Origin: Acidobacteriota bacterium
Lineage (GTDB): Bacteria > Acidobacteriota > UBA6911 > JACQSX01
Direction: 5' to 3'
Length of the DNA stretch: 40,960 nt
NCBI GenBank assembly: GCA_016199665.1
Contig: JACQGG010000148.1
Coordinates: forward strand, 1-40,960
In this document: in pieces, positions 7,975 through 30,929 of the stretch
Numbering within the stretch: position 1 is the first letter of the stretch
How the letters are laid out: every line of letters starts with the position of its first letter
The notes under the pieces: generated by a model
Databases searched by the model: none
Told to the model about the DNA's origin: nothing
The model's input: only the letters and a program-made list of their open reading frames with translations
Made by a program: the position numbers and the translations under genes

Positions 7975-9882
7975 TCATATGACATAGTCGGCCGGCGGAG
8001 GCAATTGAAAGCCCAGGGTCAGCTTGTCAACGATCTCTGTCAGCGCCGCCGCGTCGGCGGCCTGCTCTCCGATGTCCAGTCTCAGGTCATAGGCTGAGGG
8101 AGAGCCCTGATCCGCGGCGACTTCCGGGCTGTCAACCCTGTCGCCGGCGGGTGTGTCCCCGGGAGACGACAACAGAACCGACAGGAATCCGACATTCTTC
8201 TGTTCGGCGAGAGCCCGCATGGAGGCGGCGACCGATTCCGGCAGCGGCCACGCCACAAGGGTGACCAGTCCCGCCTGAGCCAGAAGAAGCACGGTCTCAC
8301 TGATCGCCGCCGCAACATTCCAACTGGTTCGGGACGGCGGCAATGTCTCCAAGTCCGGCGCCATGGACGTCAACACTCCGGTCAAATTGCTCTCATCGAG
8401 AAGAAAGACGGCCATGCCGCGCGCAAATAATATGCACTCGAGCCTTTGCGCAATCCGGGATATTTCGGCCGGCTCGCCGGCCAGCCACACGACCACGCTC
8501 TTGTGGCCAAAACGGTGATGACGCTGCTGCAACGTCAGTCGCTCCGCAGCGGGACCCTTCCCTGCCTTCAGACTGGGCGCGTCAAGAACCTTGTAGGCAA
8601 TCCCGCCGCCCGCAAGCATGGTCCCGTCTGCAAGCACGAGCCTGCCTGTTGCAGCATTCTCCGAGTAAGGATCAATCGCGATCGGAGTCCGGGTGTGAAT
8701 CGTCACCTCGGCCACCTCATTGTGGCCGACGGAGTCGCGAACCCCGGCGACTTCCCCCAGGCTGTCGGCGTCAATGACCCGGTCCACCGACAGCACCTGA
8801 CAACTGACTTCCTGGGTTGTGACCTTGAGCTTGTAAGATCTGTTCCGGACCAGCGGCTCCTTTCCAAGCCAAAAGAGGCGAGCCTTGAACTTATGGGTCA
8901 CATCCGGCGGCATACCCTCGGGCGTGGCGACCTGGCCACGCTCGACAAAAATCTGCTCCTTGAGTGTGAGACCGACCGTCTCACCGGTCCGCGCACCGGA
9001 CTTCTTGGGCGCACTCCAGGCCTCGATGGTTTCAACTGAGGCTTCCTTTCCCCCGGGCCAAAAGACCAGCTTATCTCCGACGCTCACCTGCCCCGACTCG
9101 ACTCGTCCCACCAGAATCCGGCGATGGTCAAATCGGTAGACATCCTGAATCGGAATCCGCAGCGGCAGGGCGGACGGCGCTTTAAGACACTCAAAACCGT
9201 CCATGGCCGCGACAACGCTGGGGCCCTGGTACCAGGGGGTCTCCCCACTCGGGCCGGCAAGATTAACCCCGTCGGCCGCGACAATCGGGATAAAAACCTG
9301 CGGCTCGATGCCTGCCTTCTTCAGAAAGGCGCTACATTCACTTTCGATGTGCGAAAAAACCGCGCGATCATACCCGACCAGGTCCATCTTATTGACCAGA
9401 ACAACCAACTGGCGCACGCCAAGCAGGCTGAGCAGGTACCCATGCTGGCGCGTCTGTTCGCGAACGCCCTCGTTTGCCGCGATCAGCAACAAGGCTGCGT
9501 CGGCGCTGGCCGCTCCGGTGACCATGTTCTTGAGGAACTCACGATGGCCGGGCGCATCGATAATGACGTATTCTCTGGTTGCCGTGTGCAGCCACGTTTG
9601 GGCGACATCAATCGTTATGTTCTGGTCCCGCTCCGATTGAAAGGCGTCCATCAAGAAGGCCCATTCAAACTTGACGCCCCGCCTCTGGCAGGCGGTCTGG
9701 ATCTGCTCCTGCTTGCCGGTCGGCAGCGACCCTGTTTCCCAAAGGAGCCGTCCCACAAAGGTGCTCTTGCCGTGGTCAACGTGACCGACAATAACGACTC
9801 GGACCGGGCTGTCACCCGAGGGCATCGACTGCTTTGTTGTCTGAATCTCAACCAGTAGGGATTCTACGGATCTTTGTTCCAT
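7975..9882 (-). CDS. cysN: Sulfate adenylyltransferase subunit 1 (CysN GTPase) fused to a degenerate APS-kinase-like domain
   Basis: GTPase motifs are present: [18 protein letters not shown]. The C-terminal ~185 aa align with CysC ([21 protein letters not shown].. versus [21 protein letters not shown]..), but the Walker A GLSGSGKST is replaced by GEPAEISRI and LDGDNVR by LDESNLT. Confidence 0.95.
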
Positions 9883-9999
9883 CGCCGCCTATGGAGTCGA
9901 AAATAACGCAAAAATCGAACCTGCCCGGAGACCTCCTCCGGTTTGTAGAAACACGCCGTGGCGGGTCTCTGTCATGGATTCCCTGTCACGGCGCATGGG

Positions 10000-10809
10000 T
10001 CACATGTAGCCGCTCTGGCGGAGCCGCTCAAAAGCATCCTCGGATTCCTGATCCTGCGCGCGCGTGGACCGCTCGCTCTGCTTCGTTTTTCTCAGCTCAT
10101 CGATAATCTCCGGCACCGTCTTTGCCTCGGACGCAACCGTGGCCGAGCAGGGCGCGCAGCCGAGACTGCGATAGCGCCGGCCCTTGTTGGCAAAATACAG
10201 GCTTACCACCGGGATCTTTTCGTGATGGATGTATTCCCACACATTGACTTCCGTCCAGTGCAGCAGCGGGTGCACGCGAACGTGGGTCCCCGGCGCAAAG
10301 TCGGTGTTGAACTGATCCCAAAATTCGGGAGGCTGGTTCTTGAAGTTCCACTCAGAGCTCTTGTCGCGAGGTGAGAAGTAGCGCTCCTTGGAGCGGGTCC
10401 CTTCTTCATCCCGGCGAATTCCCACAATCAGGCCGGAAAACCGATGCTGATGGATCACCTGGTTTAGAGCTTCCGTCTTCAGTAACGAGCAGCAGCGCAC
10501 GCGGCTGGCGCTGCCATTTGGATAGGTCTCCCCCCGGGCGAGCACTTCCTGGTTCTGGCCGACAATGAGATTCAGGTTCCATTCCCGCATCAGCCGGTCG
10601 CGATACTCGATCATCTCCGGGATCTTGTAGGAAGTGTCAATGTGGATCACCGGAAAAGGGACGTGGCCGAAGAATGCTTTGCGCACAAGCCACAGCAGCG
10701 CGCTCGAGTCCTTTCCGACGGACCACAACAAACCGAGAGGCTCGAACTTGTTGAACGCCTCGCGAATAATGTAAATGCTCTGCTGCTCCAGCTTCTCAAG
10801 ATGGGTCAT
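10000..10809 (-). CDS. cysD: Sulfate adenylyltransferase subunit 2
   Basis: [22 protein letters not shown]...[15 protein letters not shown] (PP-loop SxGKDS)...RRDEE...[10 protein letters not shown] are canonical CysD elements. The preferred ATG at 10809 forms an ATGA overlap with the cysH stop. An upstream in-frame ATG at 10824 is also possible. Confidence 0.95.
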
Positions 10810-11516
10810 CGATGCAATCCGCATTCGGTCTTCTCAAAGCCGACCCATCGGCCGTCCCGCTCGCTGTGGCCCGGCAGGACCGGGGCGGTACAGGGAGCGC
10901 AGCCGATGCTGGGATAGTTCCTGTCATGGAGAAGGTTATAAGGGACGTCGTACCGGCGAATGTAATTCCAGACGTCATCCCGGGTCCAAAAAGCCAGAGG
11001 ATTGAATTTTGTCAGCCCAAACTTGTCGTCCCACTCTCGAATCTGGGCGTTGGCCCTTGTGGGGCTCTGCTCGCGGCGAATTCCCGTAATCCAGGCGCCC
11101 AGTTCGGAGAGGGCTCTCTTAAGCGGCTCTACCTTGCGAATCTGGCAGCAGAGGTCGGGACGGCGTTTCCAGAGAGCGGGACCATGCAGGTTTTCCTGCC
11201 CCGGCACGCTAAGCTCTGTGGCAACACGCTCAAAGCGGAGCGGGTATTTTCGCCGGGCAGATTCGATGAGCTGATAGGTTTCCACAAAGAGCAGGTCTGT
11301 ATCCAGGTAGAAGACTCTGGCATCAGGCCTGATCCGTGCCAGGCAATCGACTAAGACCATGTCCTCGGCGCCAAAACTGCAGGCCAGAGCAATTCTCGGT
11401 TGAAACTCGTCAATGGCATCCCGCAGCACACGGCCCAGTTCGATTCCCTTCTCGTCCGGGTCTGTTCCGGCCGGCCCGACAGGCGGTGACTCGTTTTCTC
11501 TCGCTTCCGGGTTCAT
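10806..11516 (-). CDS. cysH: Adenylylsulfate (APS) reductase, thioredoxin-dependent, Fe-S type
   Basis: PAPS_reduct fold. The Cys pairs CC ([12 protein letters not shown]) and CxxC (SIGCAPCT) plus the C-terminal ECGLH motif are the signature of the 4Fe-4S APS-utilising class rather than E. coli-type PAPS reductase. Confidence 0.93.
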
Positions 11517-12289
11517 CTGGCACGCCTCCTTTTCTGTGTATCAGGCTGCCAGGAAATCCCCGCCAGCTTCTGGCGCAGCTTGACGACCTGACCCATGACA
11601 ATGACCGCTGGAGCTTCGATCCCCTCCGCGAGGGCTTCGATGCTGCCCAGTGTCCCTTCAATCGTTCGTTCCCGGCAGGTCGCGCCATTGGAGGTGACAG
11701 ACACAGGAAGCGCGTCGGAAACTCCCGCTTCTCTCAGGGCGGCAACGATCCGGCGGAAGTTTTCGACTCCCATGAGAATGACCAGCGTTGCGGACTGAGC
11801 AAGCCAGCCGGCCCACTGGCGGACTTCCTCCTGGCGGCAATGATGCCCGGAAACAATGACCAGGGCGCTTGAATGGCCGCGATGCAGCACCGGGATTCCC
11901 GCCAGAGCAGGCACGGCAATCGCGCTGGTCAGGCCGGGGACCACTTCAAAGTCAATGCCGGCATTGGCCAGGGCCTCAGCTTCTTCGCCGCCTCGGCCAA
12001 AAACGTACGGGTCCCCTCCTTTCAGCCTTACCACAGTTTGGCCTTTCCTGGCCTCGGCGATGGCCAGGCGCTGGATCCATTCCTGGCCTTCGGAATGGCC
12101 GCGCCGTTTGCCCACGTAAATCAGCCGCGCGCCGGTTCGGACTTGCCTGAGAAGCTCGGGGCGGACCAGCCGATCGTACAGCACGACGTCTGCGACCTGC
12201 AGGCATCGCACCCCTCGTAATGTTATCAGGTCCGGAGATCCGGGACCGGCGCCTACCAAATAGACCTTTCCTTCTTTTGACACCGTCAT
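11513..12289 (-). CDS. cobA: Uroporphyrinogen-III C-methyltransferase (SUMT)
   Basis: VYLVGAGPGSPDLITLRGVRCLQVADVVLYDRLV...VVRLKGGDPYVFGRGGEE are canonical SUMT/CysG-C motifs. There is a 4-nt overlap with cysH. Confidence 0.95.
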   Translation of the reverse strand: MTVSKEGKVYLVGAGPGSPDLITLRGVRCLQVADVVLYDRLVRPELLRQVRTGARLIYVGKRRGHSEGQEWIQRLAIAEARKGQTVVRLKGGDPYVFGRGGEEAEALANAGIDFEVVPGLTSAIAVPALAGIPVLHRGHSSALVIVSGHHCRQEEVRQWAGWLAQSATLVILMGVENFRRIVAALREAGVSDALPVSVTSNGATCRERTIEGTLGSIEALAEGIEAPAVIVMGQVVKLRQKLAGISWQPDTQKRRRAR

Positions 12290-12293
12290 TCTC

Positions 12294-12938
12294 TCACTCA
12301 GTACCTCGATTCAGAATCACGCCCACGCCTGCGGCACAGTTTCTGACCCCTGGAGTAAAAATCTCCGGCGATTCGTCGGCAAGAAGTTCCTGCCAGACCT
12401 GAGCCCGAAGCCCCACGTCGGGATAGCGTTTTTTTACCTTGGCCCGCAACCGGGCGTAGCGAGCCAGGATCTGCCCGGCCTTGTGACTGACAATCTGATC
12501 CAGCCTTCTGGCTGCCCAGGCGGCAAATGCCGGGGATTGGCCGTCGGTGGAGACAGCCAGCGTCAAATGTCCCCGCCTGATGACGGCGGGCATGTAAAAG
12601 TCGCAAAGCGCCGGCTCATCCGTCACATTGACCAGGCAGCGGCATTTCTTGGCCCAGCGGTAGATCCGTGCGTTGGCGCTGCGGTCCTCAGACGTCCCGA
12701 ATACCAGATCGGCCCCGTCGAAATGGTTCCGGCCAATGCCGCCTCGGATCCACCTGATGGAGTTGCGCCGAGCCCACTTCGCAATGGCCGGCGTCACCGA
12801 AGGGCTGACCACGCGCACCGATGCCCCACATCCGAGCAGAGCTCGGATCCGCTTCTCGGCAGCGGGCCCGCCGCCAATGACAAGGCAAACTCTGCGGTCC
12901 AAATTCAGACTGGCCGGAAACAAGATCGCTCCTTTCAC
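12294..12938 (-). CDS. sirC: Precorrin-2 dehydrogenase / sirohydrochlorin ferrochelatase (CysG N-terminal / SirC / Met8-like)
   Basis: Rossmann motif VCLVIGGGPAAEKRIRALLGCGASVRVVSP, about 210 aa, sitting between DUF2061 and cobA. Confidence 0.88.
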   Translation of the reverse strand: MKGAILFPASLNLDRRVCLVIGGGPAAEKRIRALLGCGASVRVVSPSVTPAIAKWARRNSIRWIRGGIGRNHFDGADLVFGTSEDRSANARIYRWAKKCRCLVNVTDEPALCDFYMPAVIRRGHLTLAVSTDGQSPAFAAWAARRLDQIVSHKAGQILARYARLRAKVKKRYPDVGLRAQVWQELLADESPEIFTPGVRNCAAGVGVILNRGTE

Positions 12939-13192
12939 GGCTTGAACGAACTCTTGGAAAGCTCGATTTGAGGCGCGCGGGTGGCCGCCGTCACCTCTCT
13001 CCCCCAGTGGATCTTCAACCAGAGCCGCTCGTGGTAGTAATACAGGACGAGGCGGATAAGATTGAAGGCGGAAGAGATGCCGATCGATTCACTCCAATTC
13101 CCGGTAAACAGATAGGAGATCACGCCGAGAATCAAAAAGCCCAGCAATCTCCAGACAACCGACTTAGCCCATGAACGGGCCTTTGTCTCCAC
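12935..13192 (-). CDS. DUF2061 small membrane protein
   Basis: 85 aa: RSWAKSVVWRLLGFLILGVISYLFTGNWSESIGISSAFNLIRLVLYYYHERLW. This is the two-TM DUF2061 pattern, a family recurrently linked to sulfate-assimilation genes. It overlaps the sirC start by 4 nt. Confidence 0.8.
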   Translation of the reverse strand: METKARSWAKSVVWRLLGFLILGVISYLFTGNWSESIGISSAFNLIRLVLYYYHERLWLKIHWGREVTAATRAPQIELSKSSFKP

Positions 13193-13195
13193 GAT

Positions 13196-13774
13196 TCACG
13201 ACTCCAGGTTTCTCAGCAGATCCAAAGCTGTAAAACTTCCTACTGCCTTTACGCGCACGCCAAAACGCTCCCGCAGATCGGTGTTCTGCTGCACCGTATA
13301 CACGGCGCTCGGGTAAAGCCGGCTGCACAAGGTCCTCAGGTCCGGCTCAAATGCCGCAAAGGTTTCCTCCGTATTTGGCGCCAGCAGGCGATCGTTAAGC
13401 AGCATTTCAAACTCGCTTCCGATGAATTTCAGCCTTCCGTCCAGCAACGGTTCCTGCTCCAGACGCCGGCAGGCCGTCAACGCCGACCGCACCGCTTGGG
13501 CCAGCCGGCGGCCGGTGTCTCCATTCATGGGCGCCTTGCGGTTGTAGAGAAGTCCGAGCCTGTCGCCGGTCTCGTCCATGCTGTAGTTGGCCTGGTGGCC
13601 GATCAGCATCACCCCGGGACCGGCCGAAACGTGGCGGTAGTCGGCCACATCCACCAGCAGTTCGCCGCCCACGCGCTCGCGAATCCATTCGTTGAAGATT
13701 CCGATGAACCCGGCCAGATCCAGCGCCCGCGAATCCGCTGCGAAAAACTTGACGTTTACGTGCTGCACTTCCAC
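13196..13774 (-). CDS. Hypothetical protein embedded in the sulfate-reduction operon (no family recognised)
   Basis: 192 aa with balanced, protein-like composition. It starts 9 nt after the sir stop and ends 3 nt before the DUF2061 start. I recognise no signal peptide, TM segment or known motif. Confidence 0.75.
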   Translation of the reverse strand: MEVQHVNVKFFAADSRALDLAGFIGIFNEWIRERVGGELLVDVADYRHVSAGPGVMLIGHQANYSMDETGDRLGLLYNRKAPMNGDTGRRLAQAVRSALTACRRLEQEPLLDGRLKFIGSEFEMLLNDRLLAPNTEETFAAFEPDLRTLCSRLYPSAVYTVQQNTDLRERFGVRVKAVGSFTALDLLRNLES

Positions 13775-13783
13775 GCGCCCTCC

Positions 13784-16105
13784 TCAGGCCGTTTCCGGAC
13801 TGGCCGCGGTCGCCGGGGCCGATCCTGAATCAAGCGGCAGCATCCGCTTCGCCTGCAGCCGCCCATAGCAACTATAGGCGGCCTCAACGAACAGTTGCGC
13901 CTCCTCGATGCGCCGGTGCGCAACTTCGGCTGAATAAGGACCGGCGGCGCGTTGCTGGGCGCGGAAGAGATACTGGGCGAATTTCCCGCCCGCATACGGG
14001 TCAAAGAAGAGTTCGGTGTCGTAAAAGCGTGTTCGAAATTCGCCAAGGATCTTGTCCGCGTCACCGGCGATGTCGGGCAGAAAAATCTTGACCAGGGCTC
14101 CGGCGGCCTGAACCATAGAAGCGCAGGCCGTCTCTCCAGCTTTCTGAAACTCCCCTTCGTCCAGCAGTACCTGGCTTTCAAAAACCTGCCGCTCGGCGGC
14201 GGTCAGCTCGAATTCCACGCGCGATACGACTTCGCCCGCGCACTCGCCGGCGCCGAGATCGCCGAGGGTAAACACGCGCGTGTCTCCCCAGTCGGCATAA
14301 AAGGATGGATCCACATCGTGAGAGGGAACGGAAACAAGATCCTGAAGCAATTTCTTGATTTCCGCCTTGCCCAAGCGCTGCAGGAAATCCTGAAAGCTCT
14401 CGTCCTTGCGCCGATCGGCCACATAACGGCCGGTGATTCTCAGCACGGCCTCGGGAATGCGCTTGGAGGGTACCGCGCCCATGGCAAGGCCGTAGGAACC
14501 TGCGTTGTCGGTCCACCGTCCCCCCAGCACTACCTGAAAATGGGGCACCGTATAGCTGGCCACATGCCGGCTCACGCCGTAGAAGCCAAGATCCGCAATG
14601 TGGTGCTGCCCGCAGGCGTTGAAGCAGCCGCTCACTTTGATGTGCATGTTCTGGACGGCTTGGTCCATCTGGTGGCTTTGTTCAGCCAACCGCGTGCGCA
14701 GCTCTGCTGCCAGACCCCGCGACGACGCGATGCCCAGCTTACAAGTGTCGGTGCCGGGGCAGGCGGTGATGTCAACAATGGTCCCGGCGCCCGGCTGGCC
14801 CAGGCCGATCGAAGCGAGCGCGCCATAGAGCTCCGGCAGATCGCCTTCGCTGACCCAGCGCAGGACGATGTTCTGCTCCACTGTGGTCCGGATCGTGTCC
14901 TTGACAAAGCGCCGCGCAATATCGGCCAGCTTTCGCAGTTGCACTGAAGTAATGTCGCCCAGCGGCAGAGTCACCGTTGCAACCGCATAACCCGGTTGCT
15001 TCTGGCTGAAGACGTTGGTCTTGAGCCACCGGTCAAAACCGGGCGGCGAAGCGGCGCCGCGGAAGGCGGGCGGGAGAGCCGCCGCAGGTTTCAGCGCAGT
15101 TTCCGCGTGTGCCGCCAAATCCTTCAGAAAAGCGGTCCACCGGGAATCGTGGGCCAAGGTGGCGCGTTCCTGCAGCACAATCTTGCGGAACTCTTCAACC
15201 CCCAGGTCGCTGACCAGAAACTTAAGGCGCGCCCGGTTCCGATTCTTCTTCTCACCCAAACGGGCAAAAACTCTGGAGATGGCCTGGGCTGTGGGCAGCA
15301 ACTCCTCTTCAGGCAGGAACGGGTCAAAAAGCTTTGCCTGATGGGGGACCGATCCGAGCCCCCCTCCGACGTAAAACTCAAAACCCCGCTGCTCTTTCCC
15401 GTTGCCCGTGCGCGTGACCGCGATGGCCCCCAGATCGTGCAGGTTGACCAGCCCACAGCCGTGGCTCTTGCAGCCGGAAAACGCGGCCTTGAACTTGCGG
15501 CCGAAATCCTGACAGTCCGGATGCCCCAGCAGAAACCGGGCGCAAGCCCGGGCGTAGGGGGTGACGTCAAACACCTCGTCCGGGCAAACTCCGGAATAGG
15601 GACAGGCGGTCACGTTGCGGACGGTATTGCCGCATGCTTCCCGGGTGGTAATGCCCGATGCGGCAAGACGTCGCATCAGCGAAGGCGTGTCGTCAATGTG
15701 GATAAAATGAAGTTGAAAGTCCTGGCGCGTGGTCACGTGGGCGATGCCGTCGGAGTATTCCTCGGCCAGGTCGGCGAGCACTTCAAGCTGCCGGACATTC
15801 AAGCCGCCGAACGGAATCTTGATCCGCTGCATTCCCGGCGCGTCCCAGAGCGTGCTGGGGCCCTTGGTCAGAGCGGCCGAGGGATATTGCAGTTGCCGCG
15901 TCGCCTCTCCGTCCCAGCGCTGGCCGTTGTCGTATCGCTGGCCGTAGACTCCGCGGCGAAGCCGGGTTTCCGCGAGCACTTTCTCATCAATTTTTCCCAG
16001 GCGCCTCAGCTCCAGCTCCATCTCGTAGATGTCAATTTCCCGAGCCAAATCTGCCGGCATTTCTTCCAGAAGCCGTTCCCTCCAGAACTGATTGCTGGCC
16101 TTCAT
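13784..16105 (-). CDS. sir: Assimilatory sulfite reductase hemoprotein (ferredoxin-type NirA/Sir family) with C-terminal helical extension
   Basis: There are two nitrite/sulfite-reductase repeats. The siroheme/4Fe-4S cysteine cluster is CPGTDTCKLG...SGCFNACGQHHIADLGFYG. The ATG at 16105 is preceded by GGAGG (ACGGAGGTTACCATG); the track start at 16120 is a TTG. The last ~146 aa (13784-14224) lie beyond the usual family end. Confidence 0.94.
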   Translation of the reverse strand: MKASNQFWRERLLEEMPADLAREIDIYEMELELRRLGKIDEKVLAETRLRRGVYGQRYDNGQRWDGEATRQLQYPSAALTKGPSTLWDAPGMQRIKIPFGGLNVRQLEVLADLAEEYSDGIAHVTTRQDFQLHFIHIDDTPSLMRRLAASGITTREACGNTVRNVTACPYSGVCPDEVFDVTPYARACARFLLGHPDCQDFGRKFKAAFSGCKSHGCGLVNLHDLGAIAVTRTGNGKEQRGFEFYVGGGLGSVPHQAKLFDPFLPEEELLPTAQAISRVFARLGEKKNRNRARLKFLVSDLGVEEFRKIVLQERATLAHDSRWTAFLKDLAAHAETALKPAAALPPAFRGAASPPGFDRWLKTNVFSQKQPGYAVATVTLPLGDITSVQLRKLADIARRFVKDTIRTTVEQNIVLRWVSEGDLPELYGALASIGLGQPGAGTIVDITACPGTDTCKLGIASSRGLAAELRTRLAEQSHQMDQAVQNMHIKVSGCFNACGQHHIADLGFYGVSRHVASYTVPHFQVVLGGRWTDNAGSYGLAMGAVPSKRIPEAVLRITGRYVADRRKDESFQDFLQRLGKAEIKKLLQDLVSVPSHDVDPSFYADWGDTRVFTLGDLGAGECAGEVVSRVEFELTAAERQVFESQVLLDEGEFQKAGETACASMVQAAGALVKIFLPDIAGDADKILGEFRTRFYDTELFFDPYAGGKFAQYLFRAQQRAAGPYSAEVAHRRIEEAQLFVEAAYSCYGRLQAKRMLPLDSGSAPATAASPETA

Positions 16106-16174
16106 GGTAACCTCCGTCAAGCTCGTCGTTGTCCCGCCCTAAGTGCAAAGTCAGAAGCGAATTGCGCCACAAAC

Positions 16175-16210
16175 AAAAAAACCGCCCTGAGTGTGCGTTT
16201 TCAGAGCGGG
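16175..16210 (-). terminator. Intrinsic terminator inside the sir 5' leader (attenuator)
   Basis: Minus-strand RNA is CCGCUCUGA-AAACGCACAC-UCAGGGCGG-UUUUUUU. The stem is 9 bp (one G.U), the loop 10 nt, and the run 7 U. It lies 69 nt upstream of the sir ATG and downstream of the predicted promoter. No gene lies upstream on this strand. Confidence 0.7.
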
Positions 16211-16244
16211 TCTTGTCAAAAGCAGCAGAAAAAAGGAAAAGTCG

Positions 16245-16346
16245 TCAGGCCGCCGCTTTTCGCCAACCCGCCCGAAAACGCAGAGGCGGAAAACAACAGC
16301 AGCGGATGAGTTGCTCCAGTTGGACCATATACCCGACTAATCCCAT
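16245..16346 (-). CDS. Candidate leader peptide with Cys-Cys-Cys run
   Basis: The 33-codon ORF MGLVGYMVQLEQLIRCCCFPPLRFRAGWRKAAA has TGC TGT TGT at 16293-16301. It sits between the predicted promoter and the leader terminator. There is no clear Shine-Dalgarno, and a second in-frame ATG lies at 16328. Confidence 0.45.
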   Translation of the reverse strand: MGLVGYMVQLEQLIRCCCFPPLRFRAGWRKAAA

Positions 16347-16370
16347 CAAGATAATCAATATTCCAGTGAG

Positions 16371-16398
16371 ATTTTACCCTCCTACAGAGCAAAGTCAA
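16371..16398 (-). promoter_or_regulatory. Sigma70-like promoter of the sulfate-reduction operon
   Basis: On the minus strand: TTGACT (16398-16393), 16-nt spacer, TAAAAT (16376-16371). Confidence 0.55.
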
Positions 16399-16452
16399 GA
16401 AAATTTCTGAAAAGAGGCGAACTGAAATACTCGCCGAAGATCTCCGGTCCCA

Positions 16453-17703
16453 ATGCTACAATCCGGCCCGATGCGATGGGATGTGGTGATTGTCGGCGGA
16501 GGTCCGGCGGGAGCCACCGCCGCCATGCGCCTGGCGGGTAAAGCGCGGGTGCTGGTCCTGGACAAAGAGGCATTCCCGAGGGACAAGCCGTGCGGCGGCG
16601 GAATCAGCGCGCGCATTCTGCGGCGGTTTCCCGAACTCGCAAGCCTTCTCACAAAAATTCCGGTACGGACTGTAACTAAAGTTCGACTGCATGCGCCTTC
16701 CGGTTCCTGTTGCGCTTTCCAGCGGCCCGAGCCGATTTACTTCATGGTTCGACGTCTGGACTTTGATGCCCTGCTGTTGCGCGAAGCCGAAAGAAGAGGC
16801 GCCGTTGTCCAGACGGAAACGGTGACGAGTCTCCGGGTCTGCTCGGACGCGGTGACGGTGCAGACCCGGGAACAGGAACACATCGCTTCGCTGGTCATCG
16901 GATGCGATGGCGTCAATAGCGTCGTGGCGCGGGCTTCAGGCTTGCGTCCCCGCTGGCCGGAGTCCTGTTTGGCCATCGATATGATGGAGGAAACTCCTTA
17001 CAGCCGCCTGGACTTCCGCGAGCGCGACACCATGGAGGTCTTCTACGGCTACAATGGAGAACCCGGCTATGTCTACCTTTTTCCAAAGGCGGACCATATC
17101 AACGTCGGCATCGGATGGAAGATGCAGCATTTCAGGCGCCATAAGCCGGGGCCTCCCTATCGCCATCACAGGGCTCTGGTCGAGCTCTTGATTGCGAGCG
17201 GAAAGCTGCAAGGAGGCTCCGACCGGAGCTGCTTCCGGCCGTTCGTCATTCCCGTGGGAGGAGTCTGGCCGCGCACCTGCGCGGATCGCGTGCTGCTGTG
17301 CGGCGACGCAGCCGGCTTTGTCAACGCATTCACGGCGGAAGGAATCTACTACGCCATGGTTTCGGGCGACCTGGCGGCGCAGGCCACGCTGGAGGCTGCG
17401 CAGGCAGGGGCTTGGAGCAGGCGGCAGCTCGGACGCTACCCGCGGCTTTGGAAATGTGAAGTCGGACCGGAGCTTGAATTTTCCGTCAAGGTACAGCGGC
17501 TGCTTCTGAAAGACACTTCAAGAATAGATTGCATCGTGGAGGTTGCGCGCCGCAATCCCGATCTGCTGCAGAAGTTAGCCGGTTATGTCACCGGAGAAGT
17601 GGCGCACCGCTCCTTTCGGAGGTTCCTGTTTGGGTATTCCGTGCGGCGGCGCCTGCAGGATCTATTAGAATCTGGGAGGGGCGAATCGGGGCAGGCGGTG
17701 TGA
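16453..17703 (+). CDS. Geranylgeranyl reductase-family FAD-dependent oxidoreductase
   Basis: WDVVIVGGGPAGATAAMRLAG...LVLDKEAFPRDKPCGGGIS...LLCGDAAGFVNAFTAEGIYYAMVSG are hallmark motifs of the family. The start may instead be the ATG at 16471 (MRWDV). Confidence 0.9.
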   Translation: MLQSGPMRWDVVIVGGGPAGATAAMRLAGKARVLVLDKEAFPRDKPCGGGISARILRRFPELASLLTKIPVRTVTKVRLHAPSGSCCAFQRPEPIYFMVRRLDFDALLLREAERRGAVVQTETVTSLRVCSDAVTVQTREQEHIASLVIGCDGVNSVVARASGLRPRWPESCLAIDMMEETPYSRLDFRERDTMEVFYGYNGEPGYVYLFPKADHINVGIGWKMQHFRRHKPGPPYRHHRALVELLIASGKLQGGSDRSCFRPFVIPVGGVWPRTCADRVLLCGDAAGFVNAFTAEGIYYAMVSGDLAAQATLEAAQAGAWSRRQLGRYPRLWKCEVGPELEFSVKVQRLLLKDTSRIDCIVEVARRNPDLLQKLAGYVTGEVAHRSFRRFLFGYSVRRRLQDLLESGRGESGQAV

Positions 17704-25447: not shown

Positions 25448-27133
<1,686 letters not shown>

Positions 27134-27238
27134 CGGCGTCTCCGCGGTATGAAAGATGAAGTGAAAGTTGTGGATCAAAGGTCATCGGCGACTCAAAGGG
27201 CTTTCCGGGGGGTGAGAAGTCCTGATTCCCTCGCCACA

Positions 27239-28276
<1,038 letters not shown>

Positions 28277-28849
28277 TTAAACGGAATGATTGATGCCGGA
28301 ATCGCCTTCCTGCTCCGCGGCGGGCTTTCGGGCCGCCGAACTCCAGGAAGCGACCTCGGCGCTGTCAATGCGACCGGGACCGCGCACCATAGCCACCACT
28401 CCGGTTCGCACCATTTCCACAATTCCAAACGGGCGCAACAAGTCCAGCGTCGCCTCAATCTTGTTCTCGTCGCCCGTAACCTCCAGGATCAAAGTCGTCT
28501 TGCTGGCGTCGACGATTCGGGCACGAAAGATATGGGCCAGTTGCAGAATCTCGGGACGCGTCCTGGCATTAGCCTTGACTTTGACCAAAGCCAGGTCTCG
28601 CACGACTGCCGGCACGCTGCTGACGTCGTCGACCCGCAGCACGTTGACCAGCTTGTACAGATTCTGCTCGACGCGCTCCACGTTGGTCTGGGTGCCGTCA
28701 ATTACGATGGTCATTCGGGAAACACCCGGCTGTTCCGTGTGACCCACCGTCAGCGACTCAATGTTAAACGCGCGCCGCCGGAACAGTGACGCGACCCGGT
28801 TGAGCACTCCGGGTTTATCTTCAACGTAAACAACCAGGGTGTGTATCAT
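28277..28849 (-). CDS. ilvN: Acetolactate synthase small (regulatory) subunit
   Basis: The ACT domain MIHTLVVYVEDKPGVLNRVASLFRRRAFNIESLTVG is followed by the ALS_ss_C region. There is a ~30-aa low-complexity C-terminal tail. Confidence 0.94.
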   Translation of the reverse strand: MIHTLVVYVEDKPGVLNRVASLFRRRAFNIESLTVGHTEQPGVSRMTIVIDGTQTNVERVEQNLYKLVNVLRVDDVSSVPAVVRDLALVKVKANARTRPEILQLAHIFRARIVDASKTTLILEVTGDENKIEATLDLLRPFGIVEMVRTGVVAMVRGPGRIDSAEVASWSSAARKPAAEQEGDSGINHSV

Positions 28850-28975
28850 AGTCTTCCGCGGAAAAATAAAGTCACAGGCATGCCCCTCAGGCCTTTATCG
28901 GGATCCTGGATAAGGGGTTCTGCTTGTTTGTTTGCGAAGCGTCCCCACGTCTCAAAGGGGCGGCCGAATTTGACA

Positions 28976-30685
28976 CTAGGGATCGGCGGCCGTCTCCGCC
29001 AATGAGGTAGGCCGGCGGATCATCGCTTCCAGGTCGGCGCCGGCTGGAACCATTGGGAACACGGAATCTTCCTGCTCAACGCGGAAATCGATTACCACGG
29101 TGCCTTTCTCGGCCAGCGCCGCCTCATACGCCGAGGGAATATCGGCGCGCTGGGTGACTCGGATGCCCGCCAGCCCGTGTGCTTCGGCCAGTTTGACAAA
29201 GTCGGGATTGCGAAGCGGAGTCGCCGCGTATCGCCGCTCATAGAAAAATTCCTGCCACTGGCGCACCATTCCCAGGTAGCCGTTGTTGATGACAGCCACG
29301 TTAACCTTGATGTTCTCCTGGGCGGCCGTGGAGAGTTCCGCAGCAGTCATCTGAAAGCCGCCGTCACCGACGATGGCCCAGATATCGGCGTCCGGTCGGG
29401 CGAACTTTGCCCCAATGGCCGCCGGAAGGGCAAAGCCCATGGTACCCAGCCCCCCGGAAGTGATCAAAGTCCTGGGCTGCTCGTGCCGGTAGTACTGAGC
29501 TTCCCACATCTGATGCTGGCCAACGTCGGTCACGATGACCGCCTGACCCTTGGTCAGCCGCCAGAGATCGTTAATGACATGAGCAGCGTAAAGGTGGCCG
29601 CTGTCGGGCAGAAACTGAATGTCCCGAACTGCGACTTCCCCCTTCATGCTGTCAATGTGTGCCCGCCATTCCGTGTGCTTGGTCTCCGGGACGTAAGGAA
29701 GCAGTTCCAGCAGCGTTTCGCGCAGGTCTCCTACAATTCCCACATCGACCTTTACGTTCTTGTGGATCTCGGAAGGATCGATCTCGATGTGGATTTTCTT
29801 GGCGTTCACGGCGTATGTCTTCAAGTTTCCGGTCACCCGGTCGTCGAAGCGCATGCCAAACGCCAACAGCAAATCCGCCTGCTGGATGGCGTTATTCACC
29901 CAGGATTCGCCGTGCATTCCCATCATTCCCAGGTTCAAAGGATGAGAAGCGGGAATGCCTCCTAAACCGAGCAGCGTCATGGCAACCGGCGTGTCGGTCT
30001 TCTCGGCAAACTCCAGCACTTCCCGGCGCGCGTTGGACGTGACCACGGCGTGGCCCGCCAGGATAAGCGGACGCTGCGCCTTCTTGATCAAGTCCATGGC
30101 ATGCTGAACCACCTCCGGCAGCGGCCGATATTGCGGGCGGTACCCGGGCAGCCGCACTGGAGTGTCGTCCCACTCAAACTCGGCCGTGGATTGCTGCGCA
30201 TCCTTGGTGATGTCAACCAGCACCGGCCCTTGCCTGCCCGACTTGGCGATGAAAAACGCCTCCCGAATTGCCTCCGCGATATCTTCGGCGTGCGTGACCA
30301 GGAAATTATGCTTGGTGATGGGCAGCGTGATGCCGGTGACATCCGTCTCCTGAAACGCATCCGTGCCAATGACTTTGGAGCCAACCTGGCCGGTGATGCA
30401 TACGATCGGGATCGAGTCCATCATCGCCGTCGCAATGCCGGTCACCATATTGGTTGCTCCGGGACCGGAGGTCGCCACCGCAACTCCAACCTTACCGGAA
30501 GCGCGGGCGTACCCGTCGGCCATGTGCGTCGCTCCCTGTTCGTGCCTGACCAGCACGTGGTGGATGGGATAGTCGAGCATGGCGTCGTAAGCGGGCAGAA
30601 TGGCCCCCCCCGGATAGCCAAAGACCACATCCACCCCTTCTCGAACCAAACATTCCCAGATGACTTGTGCGCCCTTCAATTGCAT
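28976..30685 (-). CDS. ilvB: Acetolactate synthase large subunit (biosynthetic, ThDP-dependent)
   Basis: MQLKGAQVIWECLVREGVDVVFGYPGGAILPAYDA...GPGATN...GDGGFQM...NNGYLGMVRQWQ are canonical AHAS motifs. Confidence 0.97.
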   Translation of the reverse strand: MQLKGAQVIWECLVREGVDVVFGYPGGAILPAYDAMLDYPIHHVLVRHEQGATHMADGYARASGKVGVAVATSGPGATNMVTGIATAMMDSIPIVCITGQVGSKVIGTDAFQETDVTGITLPITKHNFLVTHAEDIAEAIREAFFIAKSGRQGPVLVDITKDAQQSTAEFEWDDTPVRLPGYRPQYRPLPEVVQHAMDLIKKAQRPLILAGHAVVTSNARREVLEFAEKTDTPVAMTLLGLGGIPASHPLNLGMMGMHGESWVNNAIQQADLLLAFGMRFDDRVTGNLKTYAVNAKKIHIEIDPSEIHKNVKVDVGIVGDLRETLLELLPYVPETKHTEWRAHIDSMKGEVAVRDIQFLPDSGHLYAAHVINDLWRLTKGQAVIVTDVGQHQMWEAQYYRHEQPRTLITSGGLGTMGFALPAAIGAKFARPDADIWAIVGDGGFQMTAAELSTAAQENIKVNVAVINNGYLGMVRQWQEFFYERRYAATPLRNPDFVKLAEAHGLAGIRVTQRADIPSAYEAALAEKGTVVIDFRVEQEDSVFPMVPAGADLEAMIRRPTSLAETAADP

Positions 30686-30803
30686 GAAATCCCTCTGCGG
30701 TTCGCCTGCGATTCAAACACCGGGAAGCCAGTGGAGACTTGCAACGGCCACGGCTGGGGAGGACCTCTCCTGCTCCCGGCATGAACCCTTTGAGCAGATA
30801 CCC

Positions 30804-30831
30804 ATTCTAGCGGCAAATCAAACAGCAGTAA
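30804..30831 (-). promoter_or_regulatory. Candidate sigma70-like promoter of the ilv operon
   Basis: On the minus strand: TTACTG (30831-30826), 16-nt spacer, TAGAAT (30809-30804), about 120 nt upstream of the ilvB ATG. Confidence 0.4.
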
Positions 30832-30929
30832 GGCTATCAGCCGGAGGCCGGAAAGACAAGCACTTAAGGCACGAGTTTCGCACACCTATGAGACCCGTGG
30901 TACGATTCAGTTGATTCGGTCATCGACTG

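Follow-up and report, generated by a model that had tools for sequence, protein, structure and literature searches.

We analyzed a 40,960-nucleotide (nt) stretch of DNA (the window; contig JACQGG010000148.1) from the metagenome-assembled genome (MAG) of an uncultured acidobacterium, with a focus on the leader of sir, the first gene of a sulfate assimilation operon that we call sir-sirC-cobA-cysH-cysD-cysN. It is likely that this leader is a ribosome-mediated transcription attenuator of the trp/his type, which senses charged tRNA-Cys and controls the whole operon. The attenuator reading is well supported in silico, and its observed basis consists of the sequence elements of the leader, the helices that they form with their energies, and the recurrence of the same design before orthologous sir genes. 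The translation of the leader open reading frame (ORF), the stalling of the ribosome, the kinetics, and the response to cysteine are the parts of the mechanism that we infer.

Elements and alternative helices of the sir leader

The leader features are all located on the minus strand, and coordinates refer to positions in the window. They are as follows:

16398-16393 and 16376-16371, minus strand: sigma-70-type promoter, TTGACT and TAAAAT separated by a 16-nt spacer, 10/12 consensus positions
16346-16344 to 16247-16245, minus strand: leader ORF from ATG to TGA, 33 codons, peptide MGLVGYMVQLEQLIRCCCFPPLRFRAGWRKAAA
16301-16293, minus strand: Cys codons UGC UGU UGU, the proposed sensing codons
16284-16305, minus strand: segment 1, the 5' arm of the 1:2 hairpin (anti-antiterminator/pause), which holds the Cys codons and CCGCC
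16250-16282, minus strand: segment 2, composed of the 1:2 3' arm (16273-16250), the antiterminator 5' strand (16282-16265, UGCGUUUUCGGGCGGGUU), and the inner-hairpin 5' arm (16260-16250)
16194-16228, minus strand: segment 3, composed of the inner-hairpin 3' arm (16228-16218) and the antiterminator 3' strand (16212-16194)
16209-16175, minus strand: intrinsic terminator, CCGCUCUGA (16209-16201), 10-nt loop, UCAGGGCGG (16190-16182), and U7 (16181-16175)
16121-16139, minus strand: region 5, a third GGGCGGG copy, which in the read-through RNA can pair with segment 1 (16300-16284)
16115-16111, minus strand: Shine-Dalgarno sequence of sir, GGAGG
13784-16105, minus strand: sir, with its ATG at 16105, encoding a 773-amino-acid (aa) NirA-family sulfite/nitrite reductase, the first regulated gene

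The promoter, the 33-codon ORF, the Cys run, and the terminator are all present where the original prediction had located them. The promoter ranks best among 3 promoter-like sites in 12 kb, and its position would place the transcription start, which is unmapped, near 16364. The leader ATG lies 18 nt past this presumed start and 24 nt past the -10 box, and an alternative in-frame TTG start at 16358 lies 6 and 12 nt past them, respectively. The 5' untranslated region (UTR) of the ORF would thus be ∼5 to 18 nt long, and the transcript would not class as a leaderless mRNA.

Cys accounts for only 1.6% of the residues in the proteins of the operon. The (TGY)3 string itself occurs eight times in the GC-rich window, mostly as CTG-CTG Leu codons within genes, and the Cys run stands out by its reading frame and its surroundings rather than as a string. 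The stop codon of the leader ORF is found 45 nt after the Cys run, followed 35 nt later by the terminator, which has a 9-bp stem with one G.U pair (-14.3 kcal/mol) and is located 69 nt before the ATG of sir. The terminator sequence occurs once in the window and is therefore not a repetitive element. As previously noted, it has no upstream gene to terminate, since the neighboring gene (16453-17703, geranylgeranyl-reductase family) is divergent, on the plus strand. A second reading frame, +1 relative to the leader ORF, reads UUU UUC UGC UGC UUU UGA (F-F-C-C-F-stop) at 16216-16233 on the minus strand and ends 7 nt before the terminator stem. Past the promoter, this frame can start solely at a TTG (16296), and it is probably irrelevant, even if a ribosome stalled on its Cys-Cys pair would abut the terminator 5' arm.

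With its own promoter and terminator, the unit of ∼190 nt might be viewed as a gene for a small RNA or a small protein acting in trans, the read-through into sir being incidental. In Sinorhizobium, small RNAs derived from attenuators, as well as leader peptides, are known to function in trans (PMC6614838, PMC7298713). We give this idea hardly any credence: we detected no second sir promoter between 16175 and 16105, where the promoter-like repeat at 16153-16133 (described below) lacks a -10 box, neither the peptide nor the RNA is conserved, and a function in trans would be compatible with attenuation rather than an alternative to it.

We then examined the pairing of the leader RNA. The switch had been proposed to involve CCGCC (16289-16285), GGGCGGG (16273-16267), and ACCCGCUC (16211-16204). 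These three segments exist and pair as proposed, but each one makes up just the core of a more extended helix. CCGCC had been described as a segment immediately 3' of the Cys codons, whereas the 1:2 hairpin (16305-16284 : 16273-16250, ∼20 bp, -28.3 kcal/mol) contains the Cys codons themselves and has CCGCC:GGGCGGG at its tip. Similarly, the 2:3 helix is not limited to 8 bp: the antiterminator (16282-16265 : 16212-16194) has 17 to 18 pairs, among them a perfect 9-nt inverted repeat (16282-16274 / 16202-16194), and is stacked on an 11-bp inner hairpin (16260-16250 : 16228-16218), for a total of -45 kcal/mol. Its 3' strand spans the whole terminator 5' arm (16209-16201) and most of the loop. As the helix takes up 8 of the 9 nt of this arm, antiterminator and terminator are mutually exclusive.

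In a co-transcriptional folding series, the 1:2 hairpin was the minimum-energy structure of nascent transcripts ending between 16245 and 16204, and the minimum-energy fold switched to 2:3 by a 3' end at ∼16198. Folding of the leader, which had been suggested as a check, gave nearly isoenergetic global folds, with -64.4 kcal/mol for the terminator state (1:2 + 3:4, enforced) and -67.5 kcal/mol for the antiterminator state. The 265-nt leader (-93.7 kcal/mol) was more stable than all of 200 dinucleotide shuffles (z = -3.47), and the antiterminator reached z = -5.8 compared with shuffles of its 5' part.

The position of a stalled ribosome agrees with these helices. Based on the generally known dimensions of the ribosome footprint, an A site at the first, second, or third Cys codon would place the leading edge at ∼16289, ∼16286, or ∼16283, respectively, just short of the start of the antiterminator at 16282. 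When the first or the third Cys codon was taken as the stall site, the RNA 3' of the ribosome adopted the antiterminator fold, with 0/9 terminator pairs; for a ribosome at the stop codon, the RNA on its 3' side adopted the terminator fold, with 9/9 pairs.

We propose the following mechanism. Transcription would start near 16364, the 33-codon leader ORF would be translated while being made, and the nascent RNA would first fold into the 1:2 hairpin, with the Cys codons in its 5' arm. When Cys-tRNA is plentiful, the ribosome would reach the UGA (16247-16245), where it would cover the inner hairpin together with the 3' portion of segment 2, and CCGCC:GGGCGG and the remainder of 1:2 would re-form behind the ribosome or after its release. 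Segment 3 would then be free, the 3:4 terminator would form, and RNA polymerase would stop at U7 (16181-16175). When Cys-tRNA is scarce, the ribosome would stall on a Cys codon in the A site, with its leading edge at ∼16289-16283, holding segment 1. The free 16282-16265 strand would pair with 16212-16194, taking the terminator 5' arm, and the polymerase would enter sir.

The leader had originally been called a translational attenuator, a label that we replace with translation-coupled transcription attenuation, because the Cys tract does not sequester the Shine-Dalgarno sequence of sir. A translational device of the mycobacterial type, in which the Cys tract pairs before sir and stalling alters the translation of sir and not its transcription, appears very unlikely to us. 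The full-length RNA does offer such a pairing, between segment 1 (16300-16284, including two of the Cys codons) and 16139-16121 just upstream of the ribosome-binding site of sir, which recalls Ms5788A (10.1101/834739), but this helix ends 5 nt before the Shine-Dalgarno sequence and leaves it uncovered. Furthermore, an intrinsic terminator with an overlapping antiterminator is not needed by a purely translational device, and the mycobacterial elements are leaderless and have no terminators.

Cys-run short ORFs before other sir genes

We gathered sir loci by scanning collections of genomes and metagenome contigs with Sir, which yielded 160 loci with 58 to 70% identity. A search of 5.8 billion proteins, in which the Sir protein of the window formed a singleton cluster, identified nearest relatives with 73 to 76% identity, eight of which were fetched (L161 to L168). 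Exact look-ups of the window Sir found no other contig carrying the same protein.

Short ORFs with at least 3 consecutive Cys were found on the sense strand in 9 of the 138 non-redundant sir upstream regions. The same count was 0 on the reverse complement and averaged 0.6 (maximum, 2) over 30 dinucleotide shuffles of these regions, in which no other amino acid showed a comparable excess of runs on the sense strand. With a slightly wider definition of Cys clusters, applied to 146 non-redundant sir regions, 10 regions qualified, including that of the window. A hairpin followed by a U-run was present ≤250 nt from sir in 9/10 of the Cys-run regions and in 9/136 of the others (Fisher p = 7e-9, for regions that are not phylogenetically independent).

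The Cys-ORF modules fall into about five sequence groups, and the other groups have no nucleotide similarity to the window. Their members are as follows:

L033/L056 group: Candidatus Acidiferrales (L033) and Candidatus Dormiibacterota (L056), peptides MARIFQRGVQMCCCMRALVCGG and MALNLQRGACSCMCCCSPAPACGG
L039 group: L039 and the low-GC marine metagenome contigs L139, L144, L148, and L159
L081/L166 group: mutually homologous, peptides carrying CMCCMC and MCAC
L073 (SAR324): two poly-Cys short ORFs, 481-388 and 248-143 nt before sir, ending in ...GSLCCCCCCC* and ...HCCLCCCCCC*

L033 and L056 have a TTGACT-N17 promoter directly before the Cys short ORF, similar to that of the window, and their short-ORF ATG is located 11 nt past the -10 box, which makes the ORF nearly leaderless. 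The marine contigs L139, L144, L148, and L159 each contain two complete Cys-ORF-plus-terminator modules in tandem, from ∼310 to 20 nt before sir (for example, MKVKKTYTLSESSNFCCCCMPAFSPV with a terminator, followed by MRKMKNIYLTDYCCSCCCFAWRLLLV with a terminator), an arrangement that looks like a double attenuator. No terminator consisting of a hairpin and a U-run was detected in L073, which may represent a translational or Rho-dependent variant.

The modules have two features of their layout in common. The last Cys codon is found 21 to 24 nt before the stop codon in 11 of the 13 non-window modules (the exceptions, L081 and L166, have 57 and 51 nt), and in all 10 modules examined for this pairing, the terminator 5' arm can pair at least in part (5/11 to 13/13 nt) with a segment no further downstream than the stop codon. 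Moreover, the marine group keeps the Cys run while the length of the run and the usage of TGT and TGC vary, which is what selection on translated Cys codons predicts.

We also looked for known RNA families. At the gathering score, Rfam 15 gave no match over the whole window, and at E ≤ 10 only two chance-level matches, to a microRNA (miRNA) and a small nucleolar RNA (snoRNA) (E = 2.4 and 3.9), were obtained within 15900-16700. Nothing meaningful was found in 15 related sir loci. The proposed check for a known riboswitch thus returned no family that explains the terminator.

A different conserved leader was found in 11 other sir loci (L004, L014, L082, L083, L085, L087, L088, L090, L094, L095, and L101), on the strand of sir. 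Four of its copies are located as follows:

L004: 2690-2850
L014: 349-500
L082: 1764-1915
L087: 1691-1842

This leader has an invariant core, ATTGGAAAAGAAACTAAC, within a long-range helix of ∼17 bp (CCTTGGCTTCGATCTGG ... CCAGATTGAAGCCAGGG). Compensatory changes were found in 9 of its 22 predicted consensus pairs, nearly all of them in this helix, and several copies are followed by a hairpin and a U-run. It gave no Rfam match at the gathering score or at E ≤ 1, and we consider it a candidate for a cis-regulatory RNA not yet described, which would act on the sulfite reductase genes of Acidobacteriota-like genomes.

Since this structured leader is free of ORFs, there is control of sir at the RNA level that needs no leader peptide, and one may ask if the switch of the window is also set without a translating ribosome, by an undescribed riboswitch ligand, a protein that binds RNA, or a small RNA, the Cys frame being a by-product of a helix rich in G, C, and U. 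The near equality of the two global folds, as in riboswitch expression platforms, the lack of a Shine-Dalgarno sequence in the leader ORF, and the frequency of (TGY)3 strings in other frames would all suit such a switch. We nevertheless judge it unlikely, because the Cys codons fall exactly in the 5' arm of 1:2 and the antiterminator begins at the leading edge of the stalled ribosome, because Cys-run ORFs are enriched on the sense strand before sir and coupled to terminators in unrelated sequences, and because the marine loci preserve the Cys run through changes of codon and length. The absence of an Rfam match argues in the same direction. The central claim of the original prediction, that a leader peptide with Cys codons chooses between terminator and antiterminator, is supported by the helices, the stall geometry, the absence of a riboswitch match, and the recurring modules.

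Nearest relatives, an operator-like motif, and the operon

Several observations weigh against attenuation by a ribosome stalled at Cys codons. The antiterminator dominates at equilibrium (P = 0.999), and thus kinetics must decide on termination, as they do in classical attenuators. In equilibrium folding with ribosome masks, the antiterminator still wins if helices are allowed to span a ribosome bound at the stop codon. This ribosome covers the inner hairpin and not the antiterminator 5' strand, so that the Cys-replete branch relies on steric exclusion or on the re-formation of 1:2, and this branch is the weakest part of the model. The Cys run is only three codons long, and other frames of the genome often contain the (TGY)3 string. 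Unlike sir with its GGAGG, the leader ORF is not preceded by a Shine-Dalgarno sequence; such a sequence is also absent from the analogous short ORFs of L033, L056, and the marine loci, several of which start at most ∼11 nt past the -10 box.

The nearest relatives belong to the same set of observations. Lack of conservation in related leaders had been named as evidence that would speak against the attenuator, and this is in part what we found: seven of the eight relatives (L161 to L165, L167, and L168; 73 to 75% identity) have no Cys leader, and the eighth (L166; 76% identity) has one that is weak, with a terminator, and not homologous to that of the window. Searches of all 168 loci with blastn and nhmmer found no nucleotide homologue of the window leader from which the conservation and covariation of its own helices could be read.

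Lastly, an operator-like motif at the promoter may mean that a protein regulator carries some or all of the control. The palindrome ATTCCGATTGACTTAGTCGG(A/G)AT (also written ATTCCGATTGACTTAGTCGGAAT) directly follows the -10 box in L161, L163, L164, L167, and L168, ∼25 to 70 nt before sir, in loci where the promoter directly precedes sir and no attenuator is present. In the window, a degenerate copy is found as follows:

16333-16352, minus strand: ATCTTGATGGGATTAGTCGG, 14/20 positions of the palindrome, overlapping the leader ATG and first codons

The palindrome is probably the site of a regulator, and the window copy may bind a protein that acts in addition to the attenuator. It may resemble Rrf2-type sites. 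No gene for a regulator that binds it was found in the window.

The leader region also contains repeats. The -35 box and spacer, TGACTTTGCTCTGTAGGAGGG (16397-16377), recur with 76% identity as TGACTTTGCACTTAGGGCGGG (16153-16133), 244 nt downstream and just before the 5' UTR of sir. The motif (C)ACT(C/T)AGGGCGG occurs three times, with 16267-16276 and 16182-16193 also among the repeats, and in L161 the corresponding position before sir carries ACTTCGGGCGGG. Such repeats suggest that the attenuator arose when promoter-proximal DNA was duplicated locally.

A duplication raises the question of whether the leader is only an evolutionary by-product with a fortuitous ORF and little or no regulatory role, control being exerted mainly by a protein at the operator-like site. 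The direct repeats and the three GGGCGG copies are what such an origin would leave behind, the window leader is a singleton, and the five relatives with a promoter and an operator motif directly before sir have no leader. Yet a canonical 9-bp/U7 terminator in the 5' UTR would cripple the operon unless it was conditionally bypassed, and a 17-bp antiterminator (z = -5.8) together with correctly placed Cys codons is much to arise by accident. As analogous modules occur elsewhere and a duplication origin is compatible with function, we think it quite improbable that the leader is a mere relic.

On balance, we lean toward the view that terminator-based cysteine attenuators form an undescribed polyphyletic class at sulfite reductase/sulfate reduction operons, which would be present in several mostly uncultivated lineages (Acidobacteriota, Candidatus Dormiibacterota, SAR324, and a low-GC marine group) and would have emerged several times. 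The attenuator of the window may have originated through a duplication layered on older operator-based control. We also inspected the ilvB-ilvN-ilvC-ilvD cluster (25448-30685) of the same window: its upstream region (30686-30929, minus strand, ∼245 nt) contains no Ile/Val/Leu-rich short ORF and no U-run terminator, and hence gives no independent sign of attenuation in the same genome.

The other genes at the locus, and a hairpin beside the promoter, are as follows:

7975-13774, minus strand: the remaining operon genes, coding for a 192-aa protein, a DUF2061 protein, a SirC-like protein, uroporphyrinogen-III methyltransferase, CysH, CysD, and CysN
13196-13774, minus strand: gene of the 192-aa protein, directly 3' of sir, without a Pfam or NCBIfam match
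16453-17703, plus strand: geranylgeranyl-reductase-family gene, the divergent upstream neighbor of the sir leader
16416-16435, minus strand: hairpin resembling a terminator, GGCGAGTATTTCAGTTCGCC and then TCTTTTC, located between the sir promoter and the start of the divergent gene, just upstream of the -35 box

The sirC-like gene corresponds to the N-terminal domain of sirohaem synthase, and the regulated genes supply sulfide and sirohaem for the synthesis of cysteine, in line with an attenuator that would sense this amino acid. Sir is unusually long: the NirA/sulfite reductase models span only residues ∼92 to 589, with scores under the equivalog cutoffs, and no domain match was obtained for the N-terminal ∼90 and C-terminal ∼180 residues. 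This long Sir family is widespread (7984 proteins at E ≤ 1e-100 in the search of 5.8 billion proteins). In each of the eight nearest relatives, as in the window, a protein of 190 to 202 aa is encoded directly 3' of the long sir gene, which makes the 192-aa protein a conserved partner.

Relation to known leader-peptide attenuators

Attenuation by leader peptides is textbook knowledge, exemplified by the trp leader of E. coli and the his leader of Salmonella, and by the leu, thr, phe, and ilv leaders. As in these systems, the sir leader of the window has a promoter-proximal short ORF with tandem codons for the amino acid that is the pathway's end product, and a four-segment RNA with exclusive 1:2, 2:3, and 3:4 pairings, of which 3:4 forms an intrinsic terminator immediately ahead of the first biosynthetic gene. 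It differs from them in that it would sense cysteine and precede an operon of assimilatory sulfate reduction, without any sequence homology. Further differences are the lack of a Shine-Dalgarno sequence before the leader ORF, the position of the stop codon, which lies in the inner hairpin of the antiterminator and not at the edge of segment 2, and an equilibrium that favors the antiterminator over 1:2 + 3:4.

Cysteine had long been the notable gap among the amino acids under leader-peptide attenuation, and its version before sulfate assimilation genes is barely documented. The original prediction named in silico candidates from Actinobacteria only, a statement outdated by experiments in mycobacteria and by a prediction in Rhodobacterales. 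The mycobacterial work showed experimentally that leaderless polycysteine short ORFs respond to cysteine and act on translation, and it stated that upstream-ORF attenuation for cysteine had not been described previously (Canestrari et al. 2020, 10.1101/834739). The window shares with these elements a run of Cys codons in an unannotated short ORF before a cysteine/sulfur operon and, as we propose, a stalling that relieves repression. Ms5788A, however, unmasks a Shine-Dalgarno sequence and has no intrinsic terminator, whereas the window has a terminator and an antiterminator, its sir Shine-Dalgarno sequence is not sequestered, and its phylum is Acidobacteriota.

In Rhodobacterales, the uORFC-8-2 motif before cysS is a predicted attenuator with a Cys-Cys upstream ORF (uORF) and a terminator (Brewer et al. 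2021, PMC8632094). Here too, the tandem Cys codons lie within the first stem and a U-run terminator is found at the end, so that the mechanistic class and the amino acid are the same. The uORFC-8-2 motif regulates a cysteinyl-tRNA synthetase gene with two Cys codons and is a family of alphaproteobacteria, while the window leader has three Cys codons and precedes genes of sulfate assimilation. Neither the window nor the related sir leaders give an Rfam match. The Cys leader peptides predicted in Actinobacteria before cys/cbs operons have no terminators, and Rho-dependent termination was suggested for them (Seliverstov et al. 2005, PMC1262725). They resemble the window in that their short ORFs contain runs of Cys codons close to the stop, and differ in that the window and related sir leaders have a strong intrinsic terminator after the Cys ORF. 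We found no description of a Cys leader combined with an intrinsic terminator at sir or sulfate assimilation operons in a full-text literature search with incomplete coverage of subscription journals, including work on the comparative genomics of attenuation.

If our proposal is correct, cysteine would be added to Trp, His, Leu, Thr, Phe, and Ile/Val among the amino acids sensed by textbook attenuation, classical attenuation would operate in phyla whose gene regulation has hardly been described, and the terminator-based Cys attenuator would have been invented several times at the same gene. A Cys-run short ORF followed by a terminator is a simple signature to search for, and it could help to annotate sulfur assimilation regulons in MAGs. 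The attenuator of the window would change no general principle; it would extend the classical mechanism of the trp and his leaders to cysteine and to poorly studied phyla.

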